Of a stretch of DNA of 64,000 nucleotides, positions 506 through 32,605 are shown one piece after another (position 1 is the first letter of the stretch; the number at the start of each line of letters is the position of its first letter). This stretch comes from Candidatus Methanomethylicaceae archaeon (GTDB lineage Archaea > Thermoproteota > Methanomethylicia > Methanomethylicales > Methanomethylicaceae). The notes beneath the pieces are model-generated. The model was not told the origin of the DNA, did no database searches, and saw nothing but the letters and a program-made list of their open reading frames with translations. Position numbers and translations under genes: made by a program. The stretch is from positions 5,391-69,390 of the forward strand of contig JANXER010000002.1 of the NCBI GenBank assembly GCA_025057955.1, given 5' to 3'.

Positions 506-1395
506 TTTATCACCTCAATTAAGATTAATGTGATAATAACAATAATGGCTGAGGCTATGAAAATATTTAAAGCCTCTTTAATCTTTTCAAGAGAAGGAGG
601 ATTTTCACCACCTTCAATAAAATAATATCCGCATTTATTCAACCATATTCCCAGAGAGCCTGCCATCGTAGACATTGGCCATCCCGCATTTTTACTCTCA
701 GTAATACTATGATATCTCTTAGTAGTAGCAATTGCTCCCTTCCAATTTTTATTCAATATAAAGGAGGAAATAATGAATATTAATGATGTTAATCTTGCAG
801 GAATATAATTTGCCAAAGTATCAAGTTTTGCTGAAAACCAACCAAAGTGAAAATAGCGCTCATTCTTATAGCCAACCATGGAATCTAGTGTATTGATTAC
901 TCTATATGCCACAGCACCAGGAAGGCCAAAAATGGCATAGTAAAATATTGGTGAAAGAAAACCATCAACAAAGCCCTCTGCAATTGTTTCTATTGCAGCG
1001 GATGCTATTAAAGGAGGGGGGAGGGAGGAGGTATCTCTTCTTACAACCATTGATAGAAACCTTCTTGATTTTTCAATATTAGAATGAAAATTTTCCATTA
1101 TAGGATTAATATGATCAACCATACTCCTAAAGGCAAAAGTCATTTTAAGTATAATAGGAATTATGATTATTTGAATAAAGAAAATATCTATAGTTGTTAG
1201 AAAATATGCTGGTAAAACAAATAAAACTATTGATGATATGGCTAAAAGAGTTCCAGCCAATTTTTCATTGTTTATTTTCCTGAAAAATCTTTCTGCTTTT
1301 TCTATAAATTTCCCAATCCACACCGTGAGATGAAATTTATTTGGAGGTTCTCCAAACGTTATATCTATTAAAAATGCTAGTAATATTTGAATCAA
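484..1395 (-). CDS. cbiB: Adenosylcobinamide-phosphate synthase CbiB/CobD family membrane protein
   Basis: 303 aa. N-terminus MIQILLAFLIDITFGEPPNKFH is typical of the CbiB family. Multi-TM protein in a cobalamin gene context. Confidence 0.8.
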   Translation of the reverse strand: MIQILLAFLIDITFGEPPNKFHLTVWIGKFIEKAERFFRKINNEKLAGTLLAISSIVLFVLPAYFLTTIDIFFIQIIIIPIILKMTFAFRSMVDHINPIMENFHSNIEKSRRFLSMVVRRDTSSLPPPLIASAAIETIAEGFVDGFLSPIFYYAIFGLPGAVAYRVINTLDSMVGYKNERYFHFGWFSAKLDTLANYIPARLTSLIFIISSFILNKNWKGAIATTKRYHSITESKNAGWPMSTMAGSLGIWLNKCGYYFIEGGENPPSLEKIKEALNIFIASAIIVIITLILIEVIKWSILRI

Positions 1396-2765
1396 GGTTG
1401 AAATTCCTCCATTATTTGCCTTTTAATTCTTAAAATTGCTTCTGGATCAACTTTCTTAATATCAATGTCAGCTAATTCCTCTAATATTTTATCTGCAACT
1501 TCAACTCTATGTACCCATGTACAATCAATACAAGACCATACAATACCTTCAGTTTCTCTTTCAATAAATTTTCCACCAGTCGTCTCATCCAAGCATGGAT
1601 AGAAGGGACAGAAGCAAAGCCTACAATCGAAGACATATTTGTGACATTTCCTTTCCATACATATGGGATTGTTTGGATAAATTTTTTTCATAGAATTGAT
1701 TATATTATCTAGAGCCTCCAATAGTAGTAAATTTTCCTCTTCTCTTCTCGTGGCCACTCTTATGTATATATTAGGGAGGCCCTTCACTGAAGTCAAATCT
1801 CTTATGAGGAGGGCATAGGAAAGAAGTCTCCATTTTAGATTCCTTGGAGAAAAACCACTATTGCTAATGTCAATCATAAAAAAATTGGCTCCAGAATCTA
1901 TGGGTTTAAGACCATCAATAGATTTCAGAGATTCAAAAAACCTCTTCTTTGCTGATGTTAACCTCTCCTTTGAAAATTTAAGGAAATCCTTATCATTAAT
2001 TGCAGAAATTGCAGCAATTTCTTCTAAAATCCCCACCCTCCAACTTATTGCTGTGGCTTCAAACTTCTTAGCAAGATTTGGATGGCATATACAATATCCA
2101 ACCCTCAAACCAGGGAAACCAAATGGTTTTGTTAGCGATCTTAAAACAAATAAATTTGAAAACTCAAATGACCGTTTTATAAGTGATTCTGCTTCTTCTG
2201 ATAGCTCATGATATGCTTCATCAAGTATAACAATTATACCCTTATCTTCTGCTCTCTCAATGACTTCAATAATTTTTTTTGATTCTAAAACCTCTCCAGT
2301 TGGATTGTTTGGATTGCAAAGGACTATTGCTCCATGAGGCGATGCTTTATCAATAAAGTTAATCAAGTCATTAAAGTTTATCTTTATTCCATAAGGATGA
2401 ATGAAAATTGTGTTCAAATCCAAAGCTTTTGCAGCAGCTTCATATTCGCTAAAATTAGGGAGGGGAATTATAACTTCATTTCTTACGAATCTAGCAAGTA
2501 TGGAATGAATTAACTCAGTTGTACCACAACCAACTATAATTCCATCTGAAGATATTTCCAAATAGTTGGCTAAAGCCTCTCTTAATTTCGAATATTTTCT
2601 ATCAGGATACAGTTTTATGAGGTCAAGATGGTTCTTTATAGAATCAATAACATTGGAAGGGGGACCAAAAGGATTAATGCTTGAGCTAAAGTCAATTATT
2701 CTATTTGCTGGAATTTTAATTAAGTTTGAGATCTCAAAAACATTACCTCCATGATCAGCGATCAT
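1392..2765 (-). CDS. cobD: L-threonine-O-3-phosphate decarboxylase-like class I/II aminotransferase (CobD) fused to a C-terminal Cys-rich small domain
   Basis: 457 aa. N-terminus MIADHGGNVFE...INPFGPP matches CobD/HisC-like PLP enzymes. The last ~95 aa carry 9 Cys (CMERKCHKYVFDCRLCFCPFYPC...CIDCTW). Confidence 0.7.
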   Translation of the reverse strand: MIADHGGNVFEISNLIKIPANRIIDFSSSINPFGPPSNVIDSIKNHLDLIKLYPDRKYSKLREALANYLEISSDGIIVGCGTTELIHSILARFVRNEVIIPLPNFSEYEAAAKALDLNTIFIHPYGIKINFNDLINFIDKASPHGAIVLCNPNNPTGEVLESKKIIEVIERAEDKGIIVILDEAYHELSEEAESLIKRSFEFSNLFVLRSLTKPFGFPGLRVGYCICHPNLAKKFEATAISWRVGILEEIAAISAINDKDFLKFSKERLTSAKKRFFESLKSIDGLKPIDSGANFFMIDISNSGFSPRNLKWRLLSYALLIRDLTSVKGLPNIYIRVATRREEENLLLLEALDNIINSMKKIYPNNPICMERKCHKYVFDCRLCFCPFYPCLDETTGGKFIERETEGIVWSCIDCTWVHRVEVADKILEELADIDIKKVDPEAILRIKRQIMEEFQP

Positions 2766-9205: not shown

Positions 9206-10309
9206 ATGATTCCAATCAATAAACCGATATTGGACAATGAAGAAAAAGAGGCTGTAATGAAAGTCTTAGAAAGTGGTGTGCTCACTGATCCATCAATGAA
9301 CGGAGGACCATTTGTAAGAGAGTTTGAAAGAGAATTGGCTAAATTTGTAGGAGTAGGGGAAGCAGTTGTAGTTAATTCTGGAACTTCAGCCCTACAAGTA
9401 GCACTCATGGCATTGAACATAGGACCAGGTGATGAAGTCATAATACCATCATTTACATTTGCAGCAACAGCTGGTGCAGTGATGCTTGTAGGCGCAAGGC
9501 CAATTTTTGTGGATATTGATTTAAAAACATATAATATGATACCAGAGGAGTTTAAGAAGGCAATAACTGAAAAGACAAAAGCAGTAATTCCTGTGGATTT
9601 GTATGGTCTTCCAGCAGAGATGGATGAAATAAAAGAAATTGCAGAAAATCATGGAATAGTAGTTATAGAGGATGCTTGTCAATCCCAAGGAGCAAAATAT
9701 AAGGGGAAAATGGCTGGAGGGCTTGGAGATATTGGTTGCTTCAGCTTCTATCCAGGTAAAGTAATGACTACAGGAGAAGGAGGAGCTATATTAACAAATG
9801 ATGAAAAACTTGCTGAAAAAATGAGGATGATAAGGACTCATGGACAAATAAGGGGATATGATTCTACACTACTTGGAGGAAACTTTAGAATGAATGAAAT
9901 TAGTGCAGCTATAGGTATTGTTCAATTAAAAAAGCTTCCAAAATTTTTGGAAATTAGAGCAAAAAATGCAAAAATTCTATTAGAGCTCTTGGAAAACTCC
10001 AAAATCATTCTTCCAGAAGTTCCAGAGTATTCTGTGCATAATTGGTATCTCTTTACTATAAGATTAAGAGGGCAAAAAGAAAGAGAAGGCTTAAAGACTA
10101 AACTCAGAGAGAGTGGATTTGGAGCCACTGTATATTATCCATCACCAATTCATAAACTTCCATATTATGCTTCCATAGGTTATGGAGGGCTTAGCTTGAA
10201 AAATAGCGAAATAGCCTCACAAACTGTACTTTCAATTCCAGTTCATCCATTAGTTAAAGAAGAAGATTTGAAAAGAATGGCTGAAATAATATTAAGCTCT
10301 TCCAACTAA
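9206..10309 (+). CDS. DegT/DnrJ/EryC1/StrS family PLP-dependent sugar aminotransferase
   Basis: 367 aa with a characteristic N-terminus (EKEAVMKVLESGVLT) and a family-wide match. Confidence 0.85.
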   Translation: MIPINKPILDNEEKEAVMKVLESGVLTDPSMNGGPFVREFERELAKFVGVGEAVVVNSGTSALQVALMALNIGPGDEVIIPSFTFAATAGAVMLVGARPIFVDIDLKTYNMIPEEFKKAITEKTKAVIPVDLYGLPAEMDEIKEIAENHGIVVIEDACQSQGAKYKGKMAGGLGDIGCFSFYPGKVMTTGEGGAILTNDEKLAEKMRMIRTHGQIRGYDSTLLGGNFRMNEISAAIGIVQLKKLPKFLEIRAKNAKILLELLENSKIILPEVPEYSVHNWYLFTIRLRGQKEREGLKTKLRESGFGATVYYPSPIHKLPYYASIGYGGLSLKNSEIASQTVLSIPVHPLVKEEDLKRMAEIILSSSN

Positions 10310-11461
10310 TGTAGAAGCTATTTTCTTAGACTTAGCAATTATTGTAAGCATTGGAGGCATTCCTAAAGGTCCTTTCAATATGCTTGCATCAGCAACATAT
10401 AGAGACTCTAAGATGGGAGTATATCCATCCGTAATTGAGCTGCAACTTCCTCCTGGATGTGCCCCCCTCAAATGAGTGTAAACTATAGTATTTGGATTTA
10501 CACCAGAGTGTATTAAAAGTTCCTCAGCCTCTTTTTTCCCTCTCTCCAATAAATCAAAATCTCTTCTAGTGATGGATTTTTCCACGGAATCTAGCTTTAC
10601 AATACCATTTGGTTCATCTGCTATCTTAACCATTATTCCTAAGATTTCCTCTTTATTTGCCCTTATGCCTTTACTTAGGATCTTAGGAAGAAGGAATATA
10701 GAATAATGTGGAGATAATAAATACCCCTCTCTATTTATGAAGATGGCCATATTCAATTCTCTATCGAAGCATAATTTCTTATTTTCAACTATTCCACCTA
10801 CAGTTATAAAAATATCCACGAAAAACCCACTTCCAACGTCCTCTATTCCAGATTTAATTAATATTCTAGGGGTATCAATAGCTCCTGCACAGAGGATTAC
10901 TGCATCACCCATTATTTCTCTGCCATTTATAAGTCTTACACCTATGGCCTTTTCTCCTTTGATTATTACTTTATCCACAGGAGATTCTGGCAATAGCTTA
11001 GCACCCTTTGAAATAGCATAATTTATATAGTGAATAGCAGTCCATTTTGCATCATAAGGACAGCCAAATGCACATTTTCCGCAGGATCTGCATTTAGAGA
11101 AATCAATGGATTTTGGCATTTTTTTCCACTCTGAAGATGTTTCTAGTAGTAATCTAGTGCCATTTCCAATATGTGAATCAGGAGGTTCATTTACTCCTAG
11201 TTCCTTCTCAGCCTCCAAATAATAATCCTTAAGCTCATTATCCAACCTTAAAGAATTTCCTAATGTTGTAACTGTTGATCCACCAATGCATATATTTTGA
11301 AGGATTTCTATATCATGAGAAGTTATAGTTCTATATGTTGTTGCAGCCTTTTTAACATCCACAATACTTCCACATTCCAATATTAGAACTTCCTTTCCTA
11401 ACGATGCTAGCTCCTTTGCAATAGTAGCTCCACTAGCCCCAGAACCTACTACTATAAACAT
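10292..11461 (-). CDS. FAD-dependent oxidoreductase, GMC-like short form
   Basis: N-terminal GSGASG dinucleotide motif, CRSCGKCAFGCPY segment, and a C-terminal GMC-like region. Last gene of the 7-gene operon. Confidence 0.55.
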   Translation of the reverse strand: MFIVVGSGASGATIAKELASLGKEVLILECGSIVDVKKAATTYRTITSHDIEILQNICIGGSTVTTLGNSLRLDNELKDYYLEAEKELGVNEPPDSHIGNGTRLLLETSSEWKKMPKSIDFSKCRSCGKCAFGCPYDAKWTAIHYINYAISKGAKLLPESPVDKVIIKGEKAIGVRLINGREIMGDAVILCAGAIDTPRILIKSGIEDVGSGFFVDIFITVGGIVENKKLCFDRELNMAIFINREGYLLSPHYSIFLLPKILSKGIRANKEEILGIMVKIADEPNGIVKLDSVEKSITRRDFDLLERGKKEAEELLIHSGVNPNTIVYTHLRGAHPGGSCSSITDGYTPILESLYVADASILKGPLGMPPMLTIIAKSKKIASTLVGRA

Positions 11462-12378
11462 CTTTCATCACTTAATCTAACTGCTTCATCTGGATTCTCC
11501 ACATATGGTATAGCAGCAAGTGCACCTATTAATCCTCTTTCACCTTTTACTTTTAGTAATTTTACATCACATTGTGATGCTACTTCATAGGTTTCTTGAA
11601 TTTCTATCATAGAAGTTTTAGCTTTCTTAGCATAATTCATAAGTCTTTCATTGAAAATTATTCCTTCGAATATAGCCATTCCCGTATAATCCGATAATGA
11701 GAAATCTCTCAACATCTCTTCGAAATTATTTATTAATTTAGCTTTTTTATTCGGGGATGCTGCAAATGAAACTGATATGGCTACACAATTTTGAGTTTTA
11801 TATGGATTACGAGGATAGAGTTGAACTATGGAATGTTCCAAATAATCCACATCCATTTCAAGAGAAATTCTATAGGAAATTTCATTAACTAAGGACCATG
11901 TAGCTCCTTCATCCTTTCTATCAGTATCATCCACACCAATTATAATTTTTTCCTTTTTTGGAAGTGTTATTATTACTCTTCCTAGTCTTTCTCCTCCTCC
12001 TCGTTCTATTATTTCTACATTTTCAACCCCCTTTGCCATAGTTCTCCCTAGAGCAGCTACTCCAGCTCCAGCCAAACCAGAATAACTTACCTTAATTTTA
12101 TCATTTTCAACAATTACAAAATCTATGGAAGCAGGGCTATAGCTTGGTTTTAAAGTTGTGGATTGAAAAATTGATGGTTTTATTTTATAAAAAATGCGAG
12201 TTCCTTCCCTTTTGGACCAAAAAATACAGGGACTATTCTTAGTATAGTGATATAAAGACCAAGCAGAACCTCCAATACATGTTCCTCTGGCGTGATCTTC
12301 TACAAGCTCCACTACATTATTTTTATCATCAAACATTGCCACTATTTTATTATGAGGAGAAATCCAAGGTTTATACAT
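11452..12378 (-). CDS. Hypothetical protein with central GVDDTD...T motif reminiscent of the N-terminal kinase domain of TiaS (DUF1743)
   Basis: 308 aa. The motif IIGVDDTDRKDEGATW sits mid-protein. The TiaS similarity is recalled, not aligned. Confidence 0.4.
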   Translation of the reverse strand: MYKPWISPHNKIVAMFDDKNNVVELVEDHARGTCIGGSAWSLYHYTKNSPCIFWSKREGTRIFYKIKPSIFQSTTLKPSYSPASIDFVIVENDKIKVSYSGLAGAGVAALGRTMAKGVENVEIIERGGGERLGRVIITLPKKEKIIIGVDDTDRKDEGATWSLVNEISYRISLEMDVDYLEHSIVQLYPRNPYKTQNCVAISVSFAASPNKKAKLINNFEEMLRDFSLSDYTGMAIFEGIIFNERLMNYAKKAKTSMIEIQETYEVASQCDVKLLKVKGERGLIGALAAIPYVENPDEAVRLSDERCL

Positions 12379-12381
12379 ATG

Positions 12382-13926
12382 TTAATCCTCTAAAATTCTC
12401 GGCTTTGTAAGTTCCACTCCTTCCTCTCTGCTAACTGGAATCTCAATCAAAATCGGTTCCTTTATAACTTCAAGTGCTTTACTTACATCCTCTGGATTTC
12501 TTGCAGATATGGCATTAATTCCATAGGCTTCTGCAAGTTTTAAATAATCTGGTGGATATTCATAATCCACTCCAAAAATCTTCTTATATACAATGCTTTG
12601 AACTTGTCTTATCAATCCAAGCGATTTATTGTTGAATAGACAAACAGCTATTGCTAGATTATTTTCCCTTATGGTAGATAACTCCGAAGAACTCATTTGA
12701 AAACCACCATCTCCTACAGCTACAATTACTTTTCTATTTGGAAGAGCAAATTTAGCTCCAATAGCAGCAGGAATGGAAAATCCCATGGAAGACATTCCAC
12801 CGGAGAATATTAATTGTCTTGGATGCTCAATCCTCAAAGCCTTTAGAAGCCATATAGCATGTTGGCCTATATCTAATGAAAAAATAGCATCCTTTGATTT
12901 TGCTATTGCTTTTGCGTAGGGCATAATATCATCAGTATATTTATCAACAATTCTGCTTTTAATTTTACCTAATTTTTTAATGATTAACTCTAAGAAAGCA
13001 GATACATCTCCTCTTATTTTAATATTAGAGATAGAAGAGAAGTTCCTTGGTTCTATATCTACTTGAATGATTTTGCATTTCAAATCCATTTTTCCAATAG
13101 TCATATTTGAAAGTCTACATCCTAAGACCAAAAGTAAATCACAGCTTAATAATGCTTCATTAGCCTCTTTGAAACCTCTTCTTCCCACTGGACCTAGACA
13201 GAGGGGATGAGACTCAGGCACAATGCCCCTTCCCATCATGGATGTAACCAATGGTATTTCTGTAGTTTCTATAAAACGAAGCATTAGATCAGATGCATTT
13301 GAGAATACTGCTCCTCTTCCTGCTAATATCAATGGAAATTTAGAATTGAAGATTTCTCTTAATACTAATTCAATAGATTCAGAATTGGGGATTATTTTGC
13401 TTGGAGTTGGAGAATAATTTAACATTATAGATGGTTTTTTCTGAATATCCCCGGGGATGATTATACATGATGGTCCAGGACATCCCTCTAGACAAGATAA
13501 ATAAGCTCTACATACCATATTATAGGCTTCATATGGATCATTTATTTGAGTGCAGAACTTTGTTACTTGAGAGAATATTGCAGTTAAATTAACATCTTCA
13601 ATCCATCCCTTTCCTTGTTCATATGTAGGAACTTGACTTATTATGGAGATTATTGAAGAGTTATCCTTGAAAGATGCTGCAAGACCTGCAGCTAGATTAA
13701 CAGCCCCTTGTCCTGCACTTCCAATACATAATCCAATTCTTCCAGAGGCTCTTGTGAATCCATCTGAGGCATAAGCAGCAAATTGCTCATTTCGCATTAA
13801 TATATGTTTTATTTTTGAATTGGATAAAGCCTCATATATTGGTAGTGACCACATTCCAGGCATTCCAAAAGCAATATTCAATCCAAGCCTCTCTAATGTA
13901 GAGATTATTACTTCTGCAGCGTTCAA
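12382..13926 (-). CDS. Thiamine-diphosphate-dependent enzyme of the acetolactate-synthase/pyruvate-oxidase family (short, 514 aa)
   Basis: N-terminal Pyr domain and a C-terminal PP domain with a GDGGF...N ThDP motif. No adjacent small regulatory subunit. Confidence 0.8.
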
Positions 13927-14420
13927 GGGGCACTACCCTTTATCTTCTTCTTATAATATTCTACTAATCCTCCAGAATTAAGTATTTCCTGAAGGAATTG
14001 AGGCAAGGGTTTGTATTTTAAAATTCCTCTTTTAGTTTTTATAATGCCTTCGTTTAAATTTATTTCAATTACATCACCATTATCCACAGCATTAGAAATT
14101 CCCTTACACTCTATAAGCAGTAATCCATTATTAATTCCATTTCTAAAGAATATACGAGCAAATGATTCTGCTACAATAGCACTTATTCCTGCCCACTTTA
14201 TAGCAAGAACAGCTTGCTCTCTACTTGATCCACAGCCAAAATTTTTTCCAGCAACAATTATATCTCCTGATTTAACTTTAGAGCTGAATGTTGGATCTAT
14301 CCCTTCAAGAACATGCTTTGGCCATATTGATTTATCCACAGATCGCAAGTATTTAGCAGGTATTATAACATCAGTATCAATATCATCACCAAATTTCCAA
14401 ACTCTTCCGCTTATTATCAA
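13923..14420 (-). CDS. leuD: 3-isopropylmalate/homoaconitate dehydratase small subunit (LeuD family)
   Basis: 165 aa. [21 protein letters not shown] matches the family. Confidence 0.8.
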
Positions 14421-15667
14421 TCCAAATACCTCCTTGGATCGGTTATTTTTCCCTCTATGGAAGAGGCTGCAGTTGTTTGAGGTGAAGCAAGATAAACTTT
14501 TGAAGATCTTGCGCCCATTCTTCCAATGAAATTTCTATTAGAAGTAGAAATACAAACTTCATCCTCACCAAGAACGCCCATGTGAACGCCTAAACATGGA
14601 CCACATCCAGGGACGCCAATTATCGCCCCAGAATCCATGAGGATATCTATTATTCCATCCTTCATAGCCTTTACTAATGTAGTTTTAGATGCAGGAACTA
14701 CAATTAACCTTGCACGAACTTTTCTCCCCTTTAATATTTTAGCAGCCTCCAAAAGATCTTCGTATCTTCCATTAGTACAAGATCCTAAGAATGCTTGATC
14801 TATTGGTTCTCCTTCTACCTCAGTAACTGACTTTACATTAGAGACTTTATATGGAATGGCTACTTTTGGATCTATGTATTGAGAATCTATGGATATTATC
14901 TCAGCCACACCATCATCTGTACTATAAATCTTGCCTTCTCTTCCAAGAAATTCCATGGTCTTATCATCTGGCTCTATGAAAGCCGTCTTTGCGCCCATTT
15001 CAACTGCCATATTGGCTAAAGTCATTCTTGATGATTGAGACATTTTTTTTACAGTTTCTCCAGTGAACTCTAAAACTTTATAAGTAGCACCATCTGTGCC
15101 TAGAATTCTTGCTACTTCCAATATTAAATCCTTTGAAGATACTCCTTTTTTCAAAAATCCTTTAAATTCTATCCTAATAGTCTCTGGAACTTTAATCCAT
15201 GTTTTTCCAGTTGCTAATATATAAGCCATATCCGTAGCGCCCATTCCAAGAGCCATTAAACCAAAGGCTCCAATAGTGCATGTATGTGAGTCTGCACCAC
15301 ATACTATCATACCAGGAGCAACATAGCCTTTTTCAGGAACTACTTGATGACATATGCCCTCTCCTATTTCATGAAATTTTGTAATATTCTGCTCCCTTAT
15401 GAATTTCCTCACCTTAGCTTGTAATGTAGCAGCTTGATCATTATATGGAGGAGCAGCATGATCAAATATTACAGCTATTTTTTCTGGGCTAAATACTCGA
15501 TTCACTTCCATTTCCTTAAGTACATCAATTATAAGCGGTCCAGTACCATCATGGAAGTAGGCAAAATCCACTGGTACTTCTACAAAGTCTCCTGAATAAA
15601 CTTTCCTTCCTATAGCGCTGGATATTATTTTTTCAATTGCCGTTGCCATATAAACCCCAAAAATCAT
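14417..15667 (-). CDS. leuC: 3-isopropylmalate/homoaconitate dehydratase large subunit (LeuC family aconitase)
   Basis: 416 aa. Aconitase-family Cys ligand motifs (GSCTNGR and others). Confidence 0.85.
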
Positions 15668-15699
15668 AAATTATATTGAAGTATTTTTATTTGTCGGAA

Positions 15700-16488
15700 T
15701 CATTTTGCCAATGCACTAGCAAATATAATTGGTAAAAGAAAACCAGTTCTAGCCCTTGATGTATCAATATATACTTTGGGTAGCGCTGATGCATATGCTC
15801 CAAAGCTATCAATATTTGCAATAAGCACTAATGATCTAAAAATTAAATTACCAATTATTCCATCTGGAGCAATAATTATATTGGAAGATTCTATTGCTCG
15901 CTCAATCTCTATTCCAAAGTTCTCAACTTCCAATCCAATTTCTTCTATTTTTTTTGTAAGAATTTCTGATTGTTCCAACATTTCATCAACTTTCTTACTT
16001 CTTCCTTTATCCTCATGTCTTCCACCAGATATCACTCCTACTTTATAATCAAGTCCAAATTTTTCTGCAATTTTTTTCCCTCTAAGTGCAAATTCTATGA
16101 GATCTTCCAATGTATCTCCTTCATCTATTCCAACAGGAGCAAGCATTATTGGTCTATTTGTTATTTCCATCATGGTTATTCTATATAGATTTTTACATCC
16201 AAAGATAGACTTCATAATATGAAGAAGAGATCTTGCGCTCAAATTTCCTCTTATTGCAGCTTCTACTTCTCCACTTGCTAGTAGATGGATTAGCCTCTCC
16301 TCAATATTGTTAGAAACAATACAAGGAACTTCTGTAGTAATTTTCTTATTACAAACAATTATTGGATTTGCATAACCATGCTTCTTAGCAAATATTGCAG
16401 AATTTATAATATTATCAGCAGATGGCTTCTCTGAATCAACTCCAATGGCTACAATTGCTTTATTCGCTTTTGCAAGAGAGTAAATCAT
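15700..16488 (-). CDS. PTA_PTB (phosphate acyltransferase)-like domain protein
   Basis: 262 aa. DGIIGNLIFRSL resembles the phosphotransacetylase C-terminal motif. Weak. Confidence 0.4.
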   Translation of the reverse strand: MIYSLAKANKAIVAIGVDSEKPSADNIINSAIFAKKHGYANPIIVCNKKITTEVPCIVSNNIEERLIHLLASGEVEAAIRGNLSARSLLHIMKSIFGCKNLYRITMMEITNRPIMLAPVGIDEGDTLEDLIEFALRGKKIAEKFGLDYKVGVISGGRHEDKGRSKKVDEMLEQSEILTKKIEEIGLEVENFGIEIERAIESSNIIIAPDGIIGNLIFRSLVLIANIDSFGAYASALPKVYIDTSRARTGFLLPIIFASALAK

Positions 16489-17651
16489 TTCTTCTCCTCC
16501 AACACTTTCTTAGCAAAGTCTATAAGCTCAGAATTTTCAATTATCTTATGACCTATTGGTAAGCTCTTTAACCTTCTAACAATTTCAGCAATTTCTTCAT
16601 CACTTAAATTCAGTCCACTTGAAAGAAGTTTTTCTTTAACGCCTTCTGTGCCAGAATGTCTTCCAAATACAAGCTTTCTCTCTTGTCCAACTAACTGAGG
16701 ATCGTATGGTTCATAGGTAAAGGGATGTTTTAAGACTGCTGCTACATGTATGCCAGATTCATGTCTAAATGCATTTTCTCCTACAATGGCTTTATTTACA
16801 GGTATTGGAATTCCAGAGAATTTTGAAACTAGTAGAGAGAGATCACGAAGTTTTTCAATACGAAAGTTTAAATCTACTCCATATAATGCATATAAGCACA
16901 TGACAACTTCTTCCAATGCTGCATTACCACATCTTTCTCCAAGACCATTAACAGATACTGATATAGCATCTATTCCTGCTTCATAAGCAGCTAAAGAGTT
17001 TGCAACAGCTAGACCAAAGTCATTGTGACAATGAACAGACATCTCTATATCAAAGTTTCTTCTTATTTGTCCAACTAAGTAAGCCATTCCCTTCGGTCTT
17101 ATACAACCAGCGGTATCAGCTATTCCAATTCTTTCTGCACCATGATCTATAGCAGCTTTATAAAGAGATAATAAAGAATCTAATGTGGTTCTTGTAGCAT
17201 CTTCTGCAGTCAATTGTACAAATAAACCATGATCCTTAGCATATTCCACTGCCCATAAGGCCATATCTATAGCGTTCTTCAAGTCCATTTTCAATTTATA
17301 CTTCAAATGTAAATCGGATACTGCCAAGAATATTATTACCCCTTCAACCTCTGCCCTCAATGCAGCATCAATATCCTTCTGCTTAGGTCTGCATAGAGCA
17401 AGTATTCTAGCATTAAGTCGCTCCATGACCACCGCTTTAACAGCCTCTTCATCATAGGAAGAGATTACAGGAAAACCTGCCTCTATTTCATGAATACCAA
17501 CTTCATCCAATTTCCTGGCAATTTCCACCTTTTGTTCTTTTGTGAATTTCACTCCAGGAGTTTGTTCACCATCTCTTAGTGTAGTATCATATATCTTAAC
17601 CTTTCTATTCTCTCGATATACAAAATTATATGGACTTGTGAAATATCTCAA
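16485..17651 (-). CDS. 2-isopropylmalate / homocitrate / citramalate synthase family enzyme (short form without LeuA regulatory domain)
   Basis: 388 aa. N-terminus ...YDTTLRDGEQ. HMGL-like TIM barrel. Confidence 0.8.
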   Translation of the reverse strand: MRYFTSPYNFVYRENRKVKIYDTTLRDGEQTPGVKFTKEQKVEIARKLDEVGIHEIEAGFPVISSYDEEAVKAVVMERLNARILALCRPKQKDIDAALRAEVEGVIIFLAVSDLHLKYKLKMDLKNAIDMALWAVEYAKDHGLFVQLTAEDATRTTLDSLLSLYKAAIDHGAERIGIADTAGCIRPKGMAYLVGQIRRNFDIEMSVHCHNDFGLAVANSLAAYEAGIDAISVSVNGLGERCGNAALEEVVMCLYALYGVDLNFRIEKLRDLSLLVSKFSGIPIPVNKAIVGENAFRHESGIHVAAVLKHPFTYEPYDPQLVGQERKLVFGRHSGTEGVKEKLLSSGLNLSDEEIAEIVRRLKSLPIGHKIIENSELIDFAKKVLEEKK

Positions 17652-17686: not shown

Positions 17687-18430
17687 CTATATTTGATCTT
17701 TGTATGAAAGTTTCTTGAATGCTTCTTTAGCCAAATTATACATCTCATAATCTCCAATATCATACCAATATCCCTTGAATTTAAAGCCATAAACTTTCTC
17801 TCGATTTACTAACCATTCGATAAATTTACCTATAGGATCTGGAGGATTAGATTTCAAATAATCTTCCATTAATATCATGCTCCTCCAAGGCAGCATATAG
17901 ATACAAGTGGAGATTAAACAACTCTTTGGACTCTTTGGCTTTTCTTCAAATTCAATTATTGATCCATTATCATCAAGAATTACACATGCATAGTTTTTTG
18001 CTGATTCTAATTTATCAATCTCAAATAATGCAACAACAGGTAATTTCACTTTATAGAAAAATGATGCCATTTCTCTTAGATCAAGTGAAAATACATTATC
18101 TCCAGCAACTATTAAATAATCATCTCTTACATTTTTAGCAATATTCCATACAGCAATTATTGGACCTGGCTTTTCCTCTTCCTTCATGGATGGTTCAGTT
18201 ATAACAGTTAAATTTTTATAACCTCTCTCTTTAATCCATTCCAAGAAGTTTTTTTCAAATTTTTTATTTGTAGAAATTATAATCTCACTCAAATTTTCTA
18301 TTTTCATAATTTTAGGAATTATATAATCCAATATACAACCATCTCCTAATGGAAGTAAGGGCTTTGGTTTTTCCAAAGTAAGAGGCCATAACCTCTTAGC
18401 ATAACCTCCAGCTAGTACAATTGTTCGCAT
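17687..18430 (-). CDS. Sugar-phosphate nucleotidyltransferase (NTP_transferase family)
   Basis: N-terminus MRTIVLAGGYAKRLWPLT. GxGxR(L) motif. Confidence 0.75.
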   Translation of the reverse strand: MRTIVLAGGYAKRLWPLTLEKPKPLLPLGDGCILDYIIPKIMKIENLSEIIISTNKKFEKNFLEWIKERGYKNLTVITEPSMKEEEKPGPIIAVWNIAKNVRDDYLIVAGDNVFSLDLREMASFFYKVKLPVVALFEIDKLESAKNYACVILDDNGSIIEFEEKPKSPKSCLISTCIYMLPWRSMILMEDYLKSNPPDPIGKFIEWLVNREKVYGFKFKGYWYDIGDYEMYNLAKEAFKKLSYKDQI

Positions 18431-18484
18431 TCTCTCACCATAAATAATATAAAGAATAGAGTATTTTAATTATTTCACTTAGCC

Positions 18485-18928
18485 ATGAATCCTTACATCA
18501 ATGTAATAATAATATCATTAATGCCAATAGCAGAATGTAGAGGAGCAATACCTTACGGTTTAATAAACGGCATGGATGTAACAACTGTAGCCATTTTATC
18601 ATTTCTTGGAAACATTATTCCTGTTCCTTTTATTTTATTATTAATGAATAAGCTTGAGGCTATTATCTTGAGACATAATAATCTTAAAAAAATTTATGTA
18701 AAGTACATTAATAATCTCAGAAAGAGAAGTAGTAATGTTGTAGAAAAATATGGATTTTATGGGCTCATCATTTTCATAGCTTTGCCACTGCCAGGAACTG
18801 GAGCATGGACTGGAAGCATTGTAGCACATATTTTTGGCATTAAGTTAATAAAAGCCCTTTTTGCAATATTCATAGGTGTTGCAATTGCAGTCGTAATAGT
18901 AACAATTACTACAATAATAATATTATGA
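18485..18928 (+). CDS. Small membrane protein (COG2426-like)
   Basis: 147 aa with 3-4 TM segments. Confidence 0.35.
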   Translation: MNPYINVIIISLMPIAECRGAIPYGLINGMDVTTVAILSFLGNIIPVPFILLLMNKLEAIILRHNNLKKIYVKYINNLRKRSSNVVEKYGFYGLIIFIALPLPGTGAWTGSIVAHIFGIKLIKALFAIFIGVAIAVVIVTITTIIIL

Positions 18929-20011
18929 GATTTTATCTATAATTTCAATCCATAATCTCATCTTAGTAATTTGAATTTCCATAAATTTTTTCAAATGATC
19001 ATCAAGTTCTTTCAGTTTTAACTCCAACAAATCAGCTAAAGAAAGATAGGCATCGCTGTAATTATTTCCGGAGATTCCTTCGTCCACAGCCCTCCAAATC
19101 CATTCATTTATTATCATTCCATCCAATTCCTTCTTCAAGTCTTTAAATACACTTCTCGGCCTCTTATCATGAAAGCCAATGGGCTTTCCTATGGAAAGTT
19201 TATCTCCTAAGTGATCAGCTATGCGTTTTAGGAAAATTCCAGACCATATATCATCAAATCTATCAATTCCCATGAAATTCATATATAGTTGATAAAAGGC
19301 AGGAACTATTTTAGTAAGAAAGGAAGTATTCATGCTACAAAGGGCAAAATAAGTCCCCTCACCAATTATTACCTTTTCTTTTCTTATTCCTCTTCCCTTT
19401 ATATCACATTTACCATTAAACCCCCCATAGTAGAGAATGGTTAAGGCATCTAAATCCGGATCTCCTATCCAATGTCCCATATTTAATACAGTTTTTCCCC
19501 CTTTATTTATCCAAGAGTACTCTTCTAATCTTGTCTCAGGCGCATATGGATGGCCTCTTGGAAATAATCTTTTATCTATTATGAGTAGATCTATAGTATT
19601 ATACCATTTATGTTTAGAGTATACAGTCTCCCCATCATCATTAAAGAGATTGGCCCTATGAGCCTCTATAAATCCATCATTAATATAAACATCATCATCC
19701 AATTCTATTATAAAATCAGCATCCTCTTCATAAGCTATTAAAAAGCCAAAGCTGGTCTCAGCATGAGCTCTTTCAGGTATAACAGAAGAATATCTTTCAT
19801 AGGATGAACCAAATCTTGCTTTAAACCAATCCAACCTCTCTCTTGGACCATAAAACTTTTTATCTATATCCTTGAGTAGATTCTCATTCTCTCTTCTTAT
19901 TTGTTCATCACCCTCATCCACCACTATTAATTTTACATCATTTTTAATCAATTCATTAACCTTGAGATTAGATAATCTATTTATTGTTGCCATAATAAGA
20001 TATGGGGGCAT
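18923..20011 (-). CDS. Reversibly-glycosylated-polypeptide / UDP-arabinopyranose-mutase (RGP, GT75) family protein
   Basis: DDDVYI, GHPYAPETR, GHWIGDPDLDA and FDDIWSGIFLKRIADHLG all parallel recalled plant RGP/UAM motifs (DDDCFV, GYPFSLR, HGLWLNIPDYDA, YDDMWAGWCVKVICDHLG). Confidence 0.55.
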   Translation of the reverse strand: MPPYLIMATINRLSNLKVNELIKNDVKLIVVDEGDEQIRRENENLLKDIDKKFYGPRERLDWFKARFGSSYERYSSVIPERAHAETSFGFLIAYEEDADFIIELDDDVYINDGFIEAHRANLFNDDGETVYSKHKWYNTIDLLIIDKRLFPRGHPYAPETRLEEYSWINKGGKTVLNMGHWIGDPDLDALTILYYGGFNGKCDIKGRGIRKEKVIIGEGTYFALCSMNTSFLTKIVPAFYQLYMNFMGIDRFDDIWSGIFLKRIADHLGDKLSIGKPIGFHDKRPRSVFKDLKKELDGMIINEWIWRAVDEGISGNNYSDAYLSLADLLELKLKELDDHLKKFMEIQITKMRLWIEIIDKIS

Positions 20012-26701: not shown

Positions 26702-26819
26702 TGCGGGGGGTGGGATTTGAACCCACGAAGGCCTACGCCACAGGATTTCTTAGTCAGATCTTAAGTCTGGCATGCCAAAATGGCAGCCTGCCCCTTTGAC
26801 CTGGCTTGGGAACCCCCGC
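26702..26819 (-). tRNA. Intron-containing tRNA, class II architecture; candidate tRNA-Leu(UAA) with non-canonical intervening sequence(s)
   Basis: 118 nt. Acceptor GCGGGGG/CCCCCGC with A73, 3-bp D stem, T arm GTGGG-TTCAAAT-CCCAC, 13-nt variable arm. An internal CAGA-CUUAAGA-UCUG hairpin presents UAA. A GCAGG/CCUGU helix encloses about 42 nt. Confidence 0.6.
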
Positions 26820-28515: not shown

Positions 28516-29844
28516 TTGATTGATATGATTGAAAAATTTGAATGGTATGATGTTTTTGTAAAGAGGGACTATAAACCAGATTTAGAGAATGATGTAGTAG
28601 TTATATTTAAAGTAACACCATCTGAAGGTTTTAAAATTGAAGATGTAGTTGGAGCAGTAGCATCGGAGAGCAGCGTAGGCACATGGACAACATTATCCAT
28701 ATTACCCGATAGAATTTGGAAACTCATGGGGAAGGCTTATGAAATAATAAAGTTAGAAGGAAACTCTCTAATAGCAAAGATAGCTTATCCCATTGAATTA
28801 TTTGAAGAAGGAAATATGCCTGCGTTTCTTGCATCAATTGCCGGAAACATATTTGGAATGAGAAGAGTGAAAAGCTTAAGGATTGAAGATGTATACTTCC
28901 CTTATTCTTTCATGAAATTCTTCAAGGGACCATTGAAAGGAATAGATGGTGTAAGAAATATCTATAAGATATATGGAAGGCCAATTTTAGGAACTGTTCC
29001 AAAGCCTAAAGTAGGATATACTCCAGAGGAGCTTGAAAAAATATCCTATGATATTCTTTCGGGAGGAATGGATTATATTAAGGATGATGAAAATTTAGCC
29101 TCTCCTCCCTTCTGTCGTTTTGAAGAGAGAGCTAAGGGAATTATGAGAGCAATAGATAAAGCTGAGAAGGAAAGTGGAGAGAGAAAAGTTTGGCTTGCTA
29201 ATATAACAGCTGATGTAAAGGAAATGGAGAGAAGGCTTAAACTAATAGCAGATTATGGAAATCCATTTATTATGATAGATGTAGTAATAATTGGTTGGTC
29301 CTCACTTAATTATATAAGAGATCTCGCAGAAGAGTATAATCTAGGAATACATGCCCATAGGGCATTTCATGCTGCATTTACAAGGAATAGAGATCATGGA
29401 ATGTCTATGTTCGCTCTATCAAAGCTCCTCAGATTAATGGGGGTCGATCAACTTCATATTGGCACTCCTGAAGTTGGTAAATTAGAGGCGAAAACCGAAG
29501 AAGTTATAGAATATGCAAAAGTTTTAAGAGAAAGCATTTATAGGTCAAATGAAGTAAATCGCATGGAACAACCGTGGTATCATATAAAGCCAGTTTTACC
29601 AACATCCTCTGGAGGCTTGCATCCTGGAACCTTGCCTGAGGTTATTAAATCGCTTGGAGTTGATTTAGTGATTCAAGTTGGCGGTGGAGTATTAGGACAT
29701 CCAGATGGCCCTAGGGATGGAGCAGCTGCAGTTAGACAAGCAGTGGAAGCAATAACTAAGGGCATTCCTCTGAAGGATTATGCTACGCAGCATAAGGAGT
29801 TAAGAAGAGCGCTTGAAAAATGGGGAATTCTAAGAATTTCATAA
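28516..29844 (+). CDS. rbcL: Ribulose-1,5-bisphosphate carboxylase/oxygenase large subunit, archaeal form III
   Basis: 442 aa. GGMDYIKDDEN (GGxDFxKDDE), HAHRA, Gly-rich C-terminal region. Confidence 0.9.
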   Translation: MIDMIEKFEWYDVFVKRDYKPDLENDVVVIFKVTPSEGFKIEDVVGAVASESSVGTWTTLSILPDRIWKLMGKAYEIIKLEGNSLIAKIAYPIELFEEGNMPAFLASIAGNIFGMRRVKSLRIEDVYFPYSFMKFFKGPLKGIDGVRNIYKIYGRPILGTVPKPKVGYTPEELEKISYDILSGGMDYIKDDENLASPPFCRFEERAKGIMRAIDKAEKESGERKVWLANITADVKEMERRLKLIADYGNPFIMIDVVIIGWSSLNYIRDLAEEYNLGIHAHRAFHAAFTRNRDHGMSMFALSKLLRLMGVDQLHIGTPEVGKLEAKTEEVIEYAKVLRESIYRSNEVNRMEQPWYHIKPVLPTSSGGLHPGTLPEVIKSLGVDLVIQVGGGVLGHPDGPRDGAAAVRQAVEAITKGIPLKDYATQHKELRRALEKWGILRIS

Positions 29845-31564: not shown

Positions 31565-32605
31565 TTGCTTTTCTTTATCATCACCACAGGAATGTGTAAT
31601 TTAAATTGTAAATATTGTGGAGGGAGTTTTCCTGAAAAATACGTTCCATATAGAATAAAATATGAACTAAATCGATTAAGAGATTTCATTGAACAAGATA
31701 AGGATGCTGTAATAGCATTTTATGGAGGAGAACCCCTTCTAAACTATCAATTTATAAAAAATGTTATGGATAAAGTTGAAGCAAAAAAATTTGTAATTCA
31801 AACCAATGGTCTTCTCTATGAAAAGCTCAGCATGGATTATTGGCAAAAATTCGATGCAGTTTTGCTCTCCATAGATGGAAGGAGGGAGGTTACTGATTAT
31901 TATAGAGGGATGGGAGTTTATAATAAAGTAATTAAGGCAGCACTATGGTTAAGAAAGAATGATTACAGAGGTGATCTAATAGCAAGGATGACTGCATCAG
32001 AAAGAACTGATATCTATAAGGATGTTGTTCATTTGCTTAATCTCAAGATTTTCGATCATATACACTGGCAATTGGATGTGGGTTGGAGCGATTTATGGAA
32101 AAATTTCGATAATTGGTGTGAATACAATTATAAGCCGGGATTAAGAGCTCTTGTAAAATTATGGATAGAAGATCTTAAGAATGAATCGGTATTAGGAATT
32201 GTTCCATTCCTTGGCATAATTAAGAGATTACTTTACAATGGGCCAAAGCCTCCATGTGGTGCAGGAATCGAGTCTTTTACAGTTCTACCCAATGGTAAAA
32301 TATTAGCATGTCCAATAGCTTATAATGTAAAATGGGCGATCGTTGGAGATTTAGAAAATAACTCCCCTTCGAATATTAAGAAAGTGGAAATAGGCGGATT
32401 CTGTAACAATTGTAAATACTTCGAAATCTGTGGAGGGAGATGCCTATATGTGAATAGAGAGGGATTATGGAGAGATAAAATTAAAAAAGTTTGTGATGTT
32501 ACAATATTTACTATTAATCTAATTAAAGAAAACATTAAGTATATAAAAAATTTTGAAAAAGTCATTTATCCTAATTTTAATAATTCAACAGAGATTATAC
32601 CATAA
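31565..32605 (+). CDS. Radical SAM / SPASM-domain protein (peptide/protein maturase-type)
   Basis: CNLNCKYCGG (CxxxCxxC) at residues 11-18, FYGGEPLL, and C-terminal auxiliary-cluster motifs CGAG...ACP and CNNCKYFEICGGRC. Confidence 0.8.
   Translation: MLFFIITTGMCNLNCKYCGGSFPEKYVPYRIKYELNRLRDFIEQDKDAVIAFYGGEPLLNYQFIKNVMDKVEAKKFVIQTNGLLYEKLSMDYWQKFDAVLLSIDGRREVTDYYRGMGVYNKVIKAALWLRKNDYRGDLIARMTASERTDIYKDVVHLLNLKIFDHIHWQLDVGWSDLWKNFDNWCEYNYKPGLRALVKLWIEDLKNESVLGIVPFLGIIKRLLYNGPKPPCGAGIESFTVLPNGKILACPIAYNVKWAIVGDLENNSPSNIKKVEIGGFCNNCKYFEICGGRCLYVNREGLWRDKIKKVCDVTIFTINLIKENIKYIKNFEKVIYPNFNNSTEIIP

Follow-up and report, generated by a model that had tools for sequence, protein, structure and literature searches.

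Coenzyme B (7-mercaptoheptanoyl-L-threonine phosphate) is required by every methyl-/alkyl-coenzyme M reductase, in the last step of methane formation, and because all such reductases depend on it, it underlies methane formation as well as the anaerobic oxidation of methane and alkanes. The aks genes for its synthesis are scattered in the genome of Methanocaldococcus jannaschii, and because the classical model methanogens show the same dispersal, comparative genomics could offer no way into the late part of the pathway, an open problem since the late 1980s. The described route begins with 2-oxoglutarate, which three Aks rounds extend to 2-oxosuberate, and then leads through 7-oxoheptanoate, 7-mercaptoheptanoate and 7-mercaptoheptanoylthreonine to the phosphate (PMC3087415). 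The enzymes of the four conversions after 2-oxosuberate have not been identified (PMC10384328, PMC12068725). In this report we analyze a cluster of seven genes at positions 10292-17651 of a 64,000-nucleotide (nt) stretch of archaeal DNA (the window; contig JANXER010000002.1 of assembly GCA_025057955.1, positions 5,391 to 69,390 of the forward strand). The cluster joins an AksA-like synthase and a HacA/HacB-like isomerase to a thiamine diphosphate (ThDP) enzyme, a flavoprotein (FADox) and two methanogenesis marker proteins, Mmp11 and Mmp4/MtxX. On balance, the gene context points to a coenzyme B operon. The narrower proposal that the ThDP enzyme, FADox, Mmp11 and Mmp4 are the four missing enzymes (decarboxylase, thiol former and a ligase/phosphorylation pair) is put forward tentatively, as a possibility with the balance somewhat against it.

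The argument starts from the host and the two marker proteins. The contig belongs to a metagenome-assembled genome (MAG) of Candidatus (Ca.) Methanomethylicaceae, a methyl-reducing methanogen of the Thermoproteota, and being a methanogen this organism must make coenzyme B. The 308-amino-acid (aa) protein of the cluster matches TIGR03280, the Mmp11 family, at 340.4 bits (cut-off 255.8) over residues 9-302 and profile positions 2-292 of 292; its closest homologues all come from Ca. Methanomethylicia (Verstraetearchaeota), and an identical copy lies on JAVQRL010000001.1 (GCA_033582615.1, labeled Ca. Methanomethyliaceae archaeon by NCBI). A preliminary description of this DNA, made from the sequence letters alone, had listed the protein as unknown with a TiaS-kinase motif. 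The relation to TiaS (TCKD/FLD) stands, the unknown status does not, and the motif that it gave as GVDDTD-x7-T has a spacing of x6, from D153 to T160. The 262-aa protein is Mmp4/MtxX by its match to TIGR03270 (195 bits, cut-off 190) and to the crystal structure of MTH_231 (PDB 9nzy, E = 9e-36). Its earlier label, PTA_PTB-like, is right as to the fold and wrong as to the family, the match to PF01515 being 21.4 bits against a Pfam gathering score of 24; the relation of MtxX to phosphate acetyl/butyryl transferases is at the fold level only (PMC12978539). Profile searches of these two genes were among the checks that the preliminary description had suggested. It had overlooked that these are two methanogenesis markers, that the host is a methanogen and that coenzyme B is the obvious product.

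Two such markers in a methanogen make coenzyme B the obvious product. Moreover, four steps of the pathway lack an assignment and the operon holds four enzymes whose chemistry could fit them. Two are the ThDP enzyme and the redox flavoprotein; the other two bring an ATP-dependent kinase/ligase domain of TiaS type (Mmp11) and the fold of phosphate acyltransferases (Mmp4), which is why we read the cluster as a probable coenzyme B operon. The more general idea of the preliminary description, a dedicated cofactor pathway in which a 2-oxoacid is elongated and then passed to a ThDP step, is supported, and its further order of events (phosphorylate, acyl-transfer, oxidize) is plausible chemistry.

The seven genes are as tightly packed on the minus strand as had been described, with overlaps of 4-10 nt and gaps of 3-32 nt (Table 1). 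According to the open reading frame (ORF) list, FADox and mmp11 overlap by 10 nt and the pairs ThDP/hacB, hacB/hacA and mmp4/aksA by 4 nt each, with gaps of 3 nt between mmp11 and the ThDP gene and 32 nt between hacA and mmp4. The 4-10-nt overlaps at aksA/mmp4 and mmp11/FADox point to co-translation or translational coupling.

This arrangement recurs in other genomes. Eighty genome loci around Mmp11 homologues were retrieved and the window proteins mapped onto them, and the contexts of more distant ThDP homologues (loci L082 and L089) were also examined. Of the 18 other Methanomethylicia loci, 17 carry hacA-hacB-ThDP-mmp11-FADox as an unbroken core, the exception being a 2-kb contig that carries ThDP-mmp11 only, and aksA-mmp4 lies directly upstream of the core in 10 of the loci. 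In L082, a deep Methanomethylicia lineage with 51% GC, the order is mmp4-aksA-hacA-hacB-aksF-ThDP-mmp11, then an opposite-strand methyltransferase, then FADox, at identities of 37% (ThDP enzyme), 50% (Mmp11), 36% (FADox) and 37% (Mmp4). The order in L089 is aksA-hacA-hacB-aksF-ThDP-FADox, up to the contig end, and in L034, from an unclassified archaeon, it is mmp11, a radical S-adenosylmethionine (SAM) gene, DUF7714, aksA-hacA-hacB-aksF-ThDP and a DUF362/Fe-S protein. Further pairings include aksA with mmp11 in L026, a Thermoplasmata contig, and mmp4 with aksA in 10 Methanomethylicales loci and L082; in Methanocellales and Bathyarchaeia mmp4 adjoins mmp11 with a radical SAM gene beside them, as in L021 and L028. 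The genes that might pass for insertions travel with the aks module, and the AksF gene missing from the window operon stands in line elsewhere. Mmp4 was considered as a stand-in for AksF on the basis of their common fold, and was rejected in this simple form because L082 holds both genes in one operon.

Several genes next to these loci deserve mention in their own right. Directly upstream of mmp4 in L082, on the same strand, lie Thi4 (sulfide-dependent thiazole synthase) and a ThiF/MoeB/UbaA-type E1 (L082:3592-5153), a pair that may provide the ThDP enzyme with thiamine or else belong to a sulfur relay. The DUF7714 protein of L034 (11841-12794) is of the XcbA family, named after a bacterial coenzyme M cluster, and its DUF362 protein (18169-19299) has two 4Fe-4S motifs.

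Family membership and context assign the LeuA/LeuCD-like genes to the homocitrate synthase/homoaconitase type. The synthase combines an HMGL-like domain (284 bits) with HCS_D2 (87 bits), and its 388 aa include no LeuA/CimA C-terminal regulatory domain. It scores 486.6 bits against LEU1_arch (cut-off 484.75), and its closest solved structure is homocitrate synthase 6ktq (268 bits), ahead of LeuA 3rmj (254 bits). At one position within residues ~146-153 (FVQLTAED), all aks-linked homologues carry Gln except that of L026, which has Asn; the same position is Arg (VRF) in homocitrate synthases 6ktq and 3ivs and Glu (VEF) in LeuA structures. The Gln might mark enzymes able to work on several chain lengths. 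The large subunit passes both IPMI_arch (558 bits) and hacA_fam (550 bits), and its 453 bits against LEU2 are under the cut-off of 610 and below its HacA_Meth score. Similarly, the small subunit scores 222.6 bits against LEUD_arch and 191 bits, below the cut-off and below its HacB_Meth score, against leud. Its recognition loop, AKYLRSVD, resembles that of the homoaconitase MJ1271 (GPYLRTTD, structure 2pkp), as opposed to that of the isopropylmalate isomerase MJ1277 (ARYLVYT, 3vba), and YLR[S/T] is conserved in every Methanomethylicia locus as well as in L082, L089 and L034. Citing Jeyakanthan et al. 2010, PMC7308503 describes this loop as a specificity determinant.

The ThDP enzyme has the three expected ThDP domains (Pfam), and the family calls of the preliminary description were likewise borne out by the domains found (HMGL-like and HCS_D2, aconitase large and small subunits and, for the FAD oxidoreductase, GMC_oxred_N plus a Fer4 motif); FAD is flavin adenine dinucleotide. 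It falls under all acetolactate synthase (ALS) equivalog cut-offs shown, the best score being 387 against 866 and that for TIGR00118 362 against 538. Throughout the aks-linked ThDP clade, RLSNM replaces the acetohydroxyacid synthase (AHAS) motif RFDDR. We take this motif to bind FAD and the acceptor keto-acid in AHAS, with its Arg contacting the acceptor, and loss of that Arg fits a simple decarboxylase. Identities to homologues drop from at least 49%, all in Methanomethylicia, to at most 41%, and in a rough neighbor-joining tree the aks-linked enzymes form a clade of their own, separate from true ALS and also from a Methanobacterium clade encoded beside a B12-radical SAM gene. The ThDP gene lies directly downstream of hacB or aksF in four divergent groups, Methanomethylicales (17 loci), L082, L089 and L034. 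These features argue that the enzyme is not an acetolactate synthase, and its context makes a strong case for a 2-oxosuberate decarboxylase.

P0178, P0186 and P0199, the ALS-like proteins of Methanobacterium that come closest to the window enzyme, were examined as possible counterparts and set aside, having no aks neighbors and belonging to the separate clade. Members of this Methanobacterium-type ALS-like clade at L083:8001-11285, L084:8001-10990 and L090:2728-6675 carry the motif GCRFSERT and are neighbored by a B12-binding radical SAM gene, a class V aminotransferase and an MptE-like gene; the clade looks like part of another ThDP pathway.

One might also read the cluster as leuA/leuCD/ilvB genes of the usual housekeeping kind, serving the synthesis of leucine, isoleucine and valine, among which unrelated genes were inserted, which is the scenario that the preliminary description had named as its refutation, provided that the neighborhoods lacked co-conservation. 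All four families do belong to the LeuA, LeuC, LeuD and IlvB superfamilies, HacB is overall closer to the M. jannaschii LeuD than to its HacB, and a search of the rest of the 64-kb window for paralogues of the seven genes gave none, so that no second copy is visible there. Nevertheless, this explanation is very improbable. The recognition loop is of homoaconitase type, the synthase lacks the LeuA regulatory domain, and the ThDP enzyme is under every ALS cut-off and without RFDDR, while neither ilvN nor ilvC accompanies its gene in the window; a search of the window found no leuB either, in agreement with the earlier statement that LeuB, IlvC and IlvN are missing and that this is not a standard branched-chain amino acid operon. 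Moreover, the supposed insertions keep their place in a conserved gene order throughout the class, down to 36-50% identity, and these conserved neighborhoods contradict the scenario.

If the cluster is a coenzyme B operon, its proteins might act as follows. From family membership and established biochemistry, AksA would condense acetyl-CoA with 2-oxoglutarate, then with 2-oxoadipate and then with 2-oxopimelate, and HacA/HacB would isomerize the (homo)n-citrates. The homoisocitrate dehydrogenase AksF, presumed to be encoded elsewhere in the genome, would complete each round, up to 2-oxosuberate. For the later steps we rely on gene context and fold. The ThDP enzyme would carry out the non-oxidative decarboxylation of 2-oxosuberate to 7-oxoheptanoate, and the flavoprotein could pass electrons through its cluster to reduce an aldehyde-sulfide adduct (a thioaldehyde or thiohemiacetal) to 7-mercaptoheptanoate. 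Mmp11, by TiaS chemistry, might activate the carboxylate for the amide with L-threonine, or phosphorylate the threonine hydroxyl, or both, and Mmp4/MtxX might handle an acyl-phosphate or another phosphorylated intermediate, for example in acyl transfer from the acyl-phosphate to threonine. Ligation and phosphorylation might fall to Mmp11 and Mmp4 either way round. The roles of FADox, Mmp11 and Mmp4 in coenzyme B synthesis are hypotheses.

Mmp11 contains the TiaS TCKD and FLD domains, the DDTD motif being in TCKD, and TiaS itself works by O-phosphorylation from ATP followed by amine attack. The match to the TiaS equivalog is 55 bits against 600 and covers only profile positions 2-152 of 422; since Mmp11 ends at residue 308, it is too short for the C-terminal part of TiaS (~420 aa), which consists of the OB-fold and zinc-ribbon tRNA-binding domains. 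For Mmp4/MtxX, the crystal structure (9nzy, 2026) combines a PTA/decarboxylating-dehydrogenase fold with a basic cleft that is conserved; its authors assign no function to the protein, and no phosphate acetyltransferase (PTA) activity is known in MtxX-bearing methanogens (PMC12978539). The published synteny survey of MtxX covered Euryarchaeota only and found no aks link (PMC12978539).

A radical SAM gene of the MSMEG_0568-type family adjoins mmp11 in L020, L021, L024, L027, L028, L032, L048, L061, L068 and L070, the hosts of such mmp11-adjacent genes being Archaeoglobi, Methanocellales and Bathyarchaeia; that of L021 scores 331 bits against TIGR04043 (cut-off 303.7). The FAD/Fe-S protein that takes the position of the radical SAM protein in Methanomethylicales may be a non-orthologous replacement. 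Loci L062, L071, L076 and L077, labeled Actinomycetota/Acidimicrobium and of 62-65% GC, encode full-length Mmp11 homologues of 41-42% identity (at ~10001-10890 in L062, L071 and L076, and at 311-1201 in L077), and the gene that directly follows is a radical SAM gene related by family to the MSMEG_0568-type gene of L021. The sigma-70 gene in L076 shows that these four high-GC loci are truly bacterial, and so the methanogenesis marker Mmp11 has bacterial relatives in a two-gene module. The families that L034 shares with the high-GC loci (DnaK, DnaJ and GrpE) were considered and dismissed as a housekeeping coincidence.

The flavoprotein matches GMC_oxred_N (65.6 bits) and, at residues 119-138, Fer4 (23.9 bits). 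Its AlphaFold2 model has a pLDDT of 89.9, and the best folds are the fructose dehydrogenase large subunit and the FAD-glucose dehydrogenase alpha subunit (TMq 0.81-0.85, TMt 0.61-0.63). Invariant residues include C124, C130 and C134 (C-x5-C-x3-C), the motif RGAHPGG and H335. Among solved GMC proteins, the catalytic subunits of FAD-glucose and fructose dehydrogenase alone align over the Cys region, residues 212-305 of 6a2u aligning to residues 124-212 of the flavoprotein; these catalytic subunits carry a 3Fe-4S cluster. As a cytoplasmic protein of strict anaerobes, the flavoprotein is likely to be ferredoxin-linked. It may run reductively, which is at least as likely as the oxidative direction of the preliminary description. 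Named homologues among the top 120 matches come from methanogens, anaerobic methanotrophic (ANME) archaea or other archaeal MAGs, specifically Methanomethylicia, ANME-1, Methanospirare, Methanomicrobia and Methanobacterium. The ANME-1 homologue (L087:4949-9200) adjoins genes for YcaO-TfuA (McrA thioglycine formation), ThiF, rhodanese and NifU, and the Methanomicrobia homologue (L088:8001-16132) has a radical SAM/ThiS protein, thioredoxins and rhodanese nearby, a weak hint of sulfur chemistry.

Observations of this kind would also suit a split of functions, in which the C7 aldehyde of coenzyme B is the joint product of AksA, HacAB and the ThDP enzyme, and Mmp4, Mmp11 and the flavoprotein are merely co-regulated, serving a different process linked to methanogenesis such as sulfur trafficking, methyl-coenzyme M reductase (MCR) maturation or another cofactor. 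Mmp11 occurs with the MSMEG_0568-family radical SAM protein and no aks genes in Archaeoglobi, Bathyarchaeia, Methanocellales and Actinomycetota, the ANME-1 flavoprotein keeps the sulfur-related company just described, and mtxX adjoins mmp2 or mmp12 in other orders (PMC12978539). A split is nonetheless unlikely in our view, if worth serious consideration. All three genes stay with the aks and ThDP genes at 36-50% identity in L082, FADox directly follows the ThDP gene in L089, the gene overlaps point to co-translation, and the predicted chemistries fit the missing coenzyme B steps.

Another product altogether is rather improbable. The candidates are pimelate/pimeloyl-CoA for biotin, the 2-oxoadipate arm of alpha-aminoadipate lysine synthesis, or some other metabolite. 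On the pimelate route 2-oxosuberate would be decarboxylated, the GMC enzyme would oxidize the aldehyde, and the kinase and phosphotransacylase would activate the acid; GMC enzymes do normally oxidize alcohols and aldehyde hydrates, and a kinase with a PTA-like protein resembles an Ack/Pta-type acyl-CoA route. For lysine, the alpha-aminoadipate pathway is common in Thermoproteota, the solved enzyme nearest to the synthase, 6ktq, makes homocitrate, and the YLR loop also fits a lysine-pathway homoaconitase. However, the synthase has Gln where lysine-pathway enzymes have Arg, and that pathway offers no role for a ThDP decarboxylase. Among the annotated neighbors (Pfam tags and family searches), neither bioF/A/D/B nor lysW/X/Y/Z/J/K was seen, and the Mmp4, Mmp11 and flavoprotein families are concentrated in methane-metabolizing archaea, unlike biotin or lysine synthesis.

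Several results weigh against the assignment to coenzyme B. AksF was found neither in the operon nor elsewhere in the 64-kb window. The large subunit scores 522 bits against HacA_Meth (cut-off 550) and the small subunit 206 bits against HacB_Meth (cut-off 230), and the latter is overall nearer to the LeuD MJ1277 (193 bits) than to the HacB MJ1271 (165 bits). Mmp11 homologues of 41-47% identity in Actinomycetota MAGs and Archaeoglobi have no aks genes nearby and pair with the MSMEG_0568-family radical SAM protein, and MtxX is present in some archaea without MCR (PMC12978539), so that a strict tie to coenzyme B holds for neither of the two families. In Methanocaldococcus the mmp11 neighbors (a GTPase, TrpC and a CBS protein) are uninformative, and the flavoprotein homologues of Methanobacterium, ANME-1 and Methanomicrobia, considered as further aks-linked support, were discarded for want of any aks linkage. 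The synteny in Methanobacteriaceae was likewise dropped as independent support. There, in ~35 loci/species (among L025-L081, e.g. L056:4942-10879), hacA-like, hacB-like, aksF2-like, sufS-like, ribH and mmp11 genes form a same-strand run; its large subunit passes HacA_Meth (588 against 550 bits) and its small subunit fails both leud and HacB2. The run is ambiguous between Aks and Leu because that small subunit has a hydrophobic YLV/YLI loop of the Leu type. Finally, MMP16 and L-aspartate-semialdehyde sulfurtransferase (L-ASST) are the proposed thiol-forming enzymes in Methanosarcina (PMC12068725).

Table 1. Genes of the cluster and other features of the window (window positions)
Feature	Position	Strand	Size or match
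aksA-like (R)-homocitrate-type synthase, short form	16485..17651	-	388 aa
Mmp4/MtxX (PTA/decarboxylating-dehydrogenase fold)	15700..16488	-	262 aa
hacA (aksD)-like aconitase-family large subunit	14417..15667	-	416 aa
hacB (aksE)-like small subunit, YLRS recognition loop	13923..14420	-	165 aa
ALS-like ThDP enzyme, candidate 2-oxosuberate decarboxylase	12382..13926	-	514 aa
Mmp11: N-terminal ferredoxin-like half + TiaS-type kinase/ligase domain	11452..12378	-	308 aa
Short GMC-type FAD/iron-sulfur oxidoreductase (FADox)	10292..11461	-	389 aa
Convergent DegT/PseC-like aminotransferase	9206..10309	+	DegT_DnrJ_EryC1 408.7 bits
Sugar-1-phosphate nucleotidyltransferase, 35 nt upstream of aksA	17687..18430	-	NTP_transferase 124.5 bits
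Mechanical antisense ORF inside hacB/hacA	14011-14529	+	
Aminotransferase, nearest CobD and HisC	1392-2765	-	457 aa; CobD 263 bits (cut-off 290)
tRNA match, probably intron-containing	26702-26819	-	118 nt; 35 bits only
Ordinary tRNAs (n=4)	9087, 26927, 36474, 47135		
Type III RuBisCO	28516-29844	+	TIGR03326 604 bits (cut-off 497)
Radical SAM/SPASM protein, AF0577 family	31565-32605	+	TIGR04084 424 bits

At its 3' end the operon converges, as had been described, on the DegT sugar aminotransferase gene, which FADox overlaps by 18 nt. This neighbor is present in L002-L012, L015 and L018 and not in L082, L089 or L034; it is probably unrelated to the pathway, being a conserved neighbor within Methanomethylicales only. 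At the other end, the transcription unit may extend beyond position 17651 into the same-strand nucleotidyltransferase gene. The adjacency of that gene to aksA is not conserved, an opposite-strand gene intervening in related genomes, and the gene is missing from L082, L089 and L034; it is probably not part of the pathway. An Rfam scan of the window returned five tRNAs only; near the operon it showed neither a riboswitch nor a leader.

The other window genes that were scanned are housekeeping genes, including those for type III RuBisCO (here in a methyl-reducing methanogen), PolD, NrdD, PAN, NifS, HMG-CoA synthase, thiolase and tungstate transport. No recognizable precursor gene was seen among the ORFs inspected for the AF0577-family radical SAM/SPASM protein. 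The 457-aa aminotransferase has a C-terminal zinc-finger-like extension and probably serves cobamide synthesis; CobD is the threonine-phosphate decarboxylase, and coenzyme B likewise contains threonine phosphate.

If the proposed assignments are true, they would give two universal methanogenesis marker proteins their first functions and close the pathway. Coenzyme B, which recombinant work on methyl-coenzyme M reductase requires, could then be produced in heterologous hosts, new methanogen-specific inhibitor targets would be available, and metabolic calls for uncultured archaea with mcr genes would improve. The Methanomethylicia operon offers four clonable candidates and a first functional hypothesis for Mmp4/MtxX and Mmp11. 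We found no paper that links Mmp11, MtxX, the ThDP clade or the flavoprotein to coenzyme B, in full-text searches that left subscription journals mostly uncovered. Cofactor operons as such are already known; what is new is a compact operon version of a scattered pathway, with named candidates for all four missing steps.

The individual enzymes relate to known systems in different ways. With IlvB and the ThDP-dependent 2-oxoacid decarboxylases, the ThDP enzyme shares the three-domain ThDP fold, the GDG-x25-NN cofactor motif and the catalytic Glu47, and it is 33-36% identical to the aligned ALS-annotated proteins. It differs from IlvB in being ~50-70 residues shorter, in carrying RLSNM for RFDDR, in having no IlvN partner and in forming its own clade; the sulfopyruvate decarboxylase ComDE, which is split into ComD and ComE, has an unrelated architecture. 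Mmp11 differs from TiaS (tRNA(Ile2) 2-agmatinylcytidine synthetase, 3amt) in its N-terminal ferredoxin-like half and forms the separate family TIGR03280. Mmp4 is of the same family as MTH_231, with the PTA fold and the conserved basic anion-binding cleft, and its gene here overlaps aksA, a link not seen in the published Euryarchaeota survey. The flavoprotein has its Cys triad placed equivalently to those of the FAD-glucose dehydrogenase of Burkholderia cepacia (6a2u) and the fructose dehydrogenase of Gluconobacter (7w2j), and keeps the His of HPGG. In contrast to them, it is ~150 residues shorter (389 aa against ~540) and has no cytochrome or small-subunit partner gene in the operon, and the usual GMC catalytic Asn/His pair is seemingly replaced (GMPP). 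MMP16 (ComF) and L-ASST perform the same task that is proposed for the flavoprotein, the conversion of an aldehyde with sulfide and two electrons to a thiol, yet these families (COG1900 plus ferredoxin) are unrelated to the GMC flavoprotein and have no homologue in the operon. They make the coenzyme M and homocysteine thiols and have been suggested to serve coenzyme B too (PMC12068725).

Another of the closest known systems is the Aks pathway of M. jannaschii (MJ0503, MJ1003/MJ1271 and MJ1596). Three enzyme families are common to the two, the synthase is likewise short and without a regulatory domain, and the small subunit shares its YLR[S/T] loop with MJ1271. The LeuB-type dehydrogenase of the Aks pathway is in line at the related loci L082, L089 and L034 and missing from the window operon. 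Unlike the M. jannaschii system, the operon scores fall just under the NCBIfam methanogen homoaconitase cut-offs, the synthase has Gln where solved homocitrate synthases carry Arg, and the genes form a single operon with four further enzymes.

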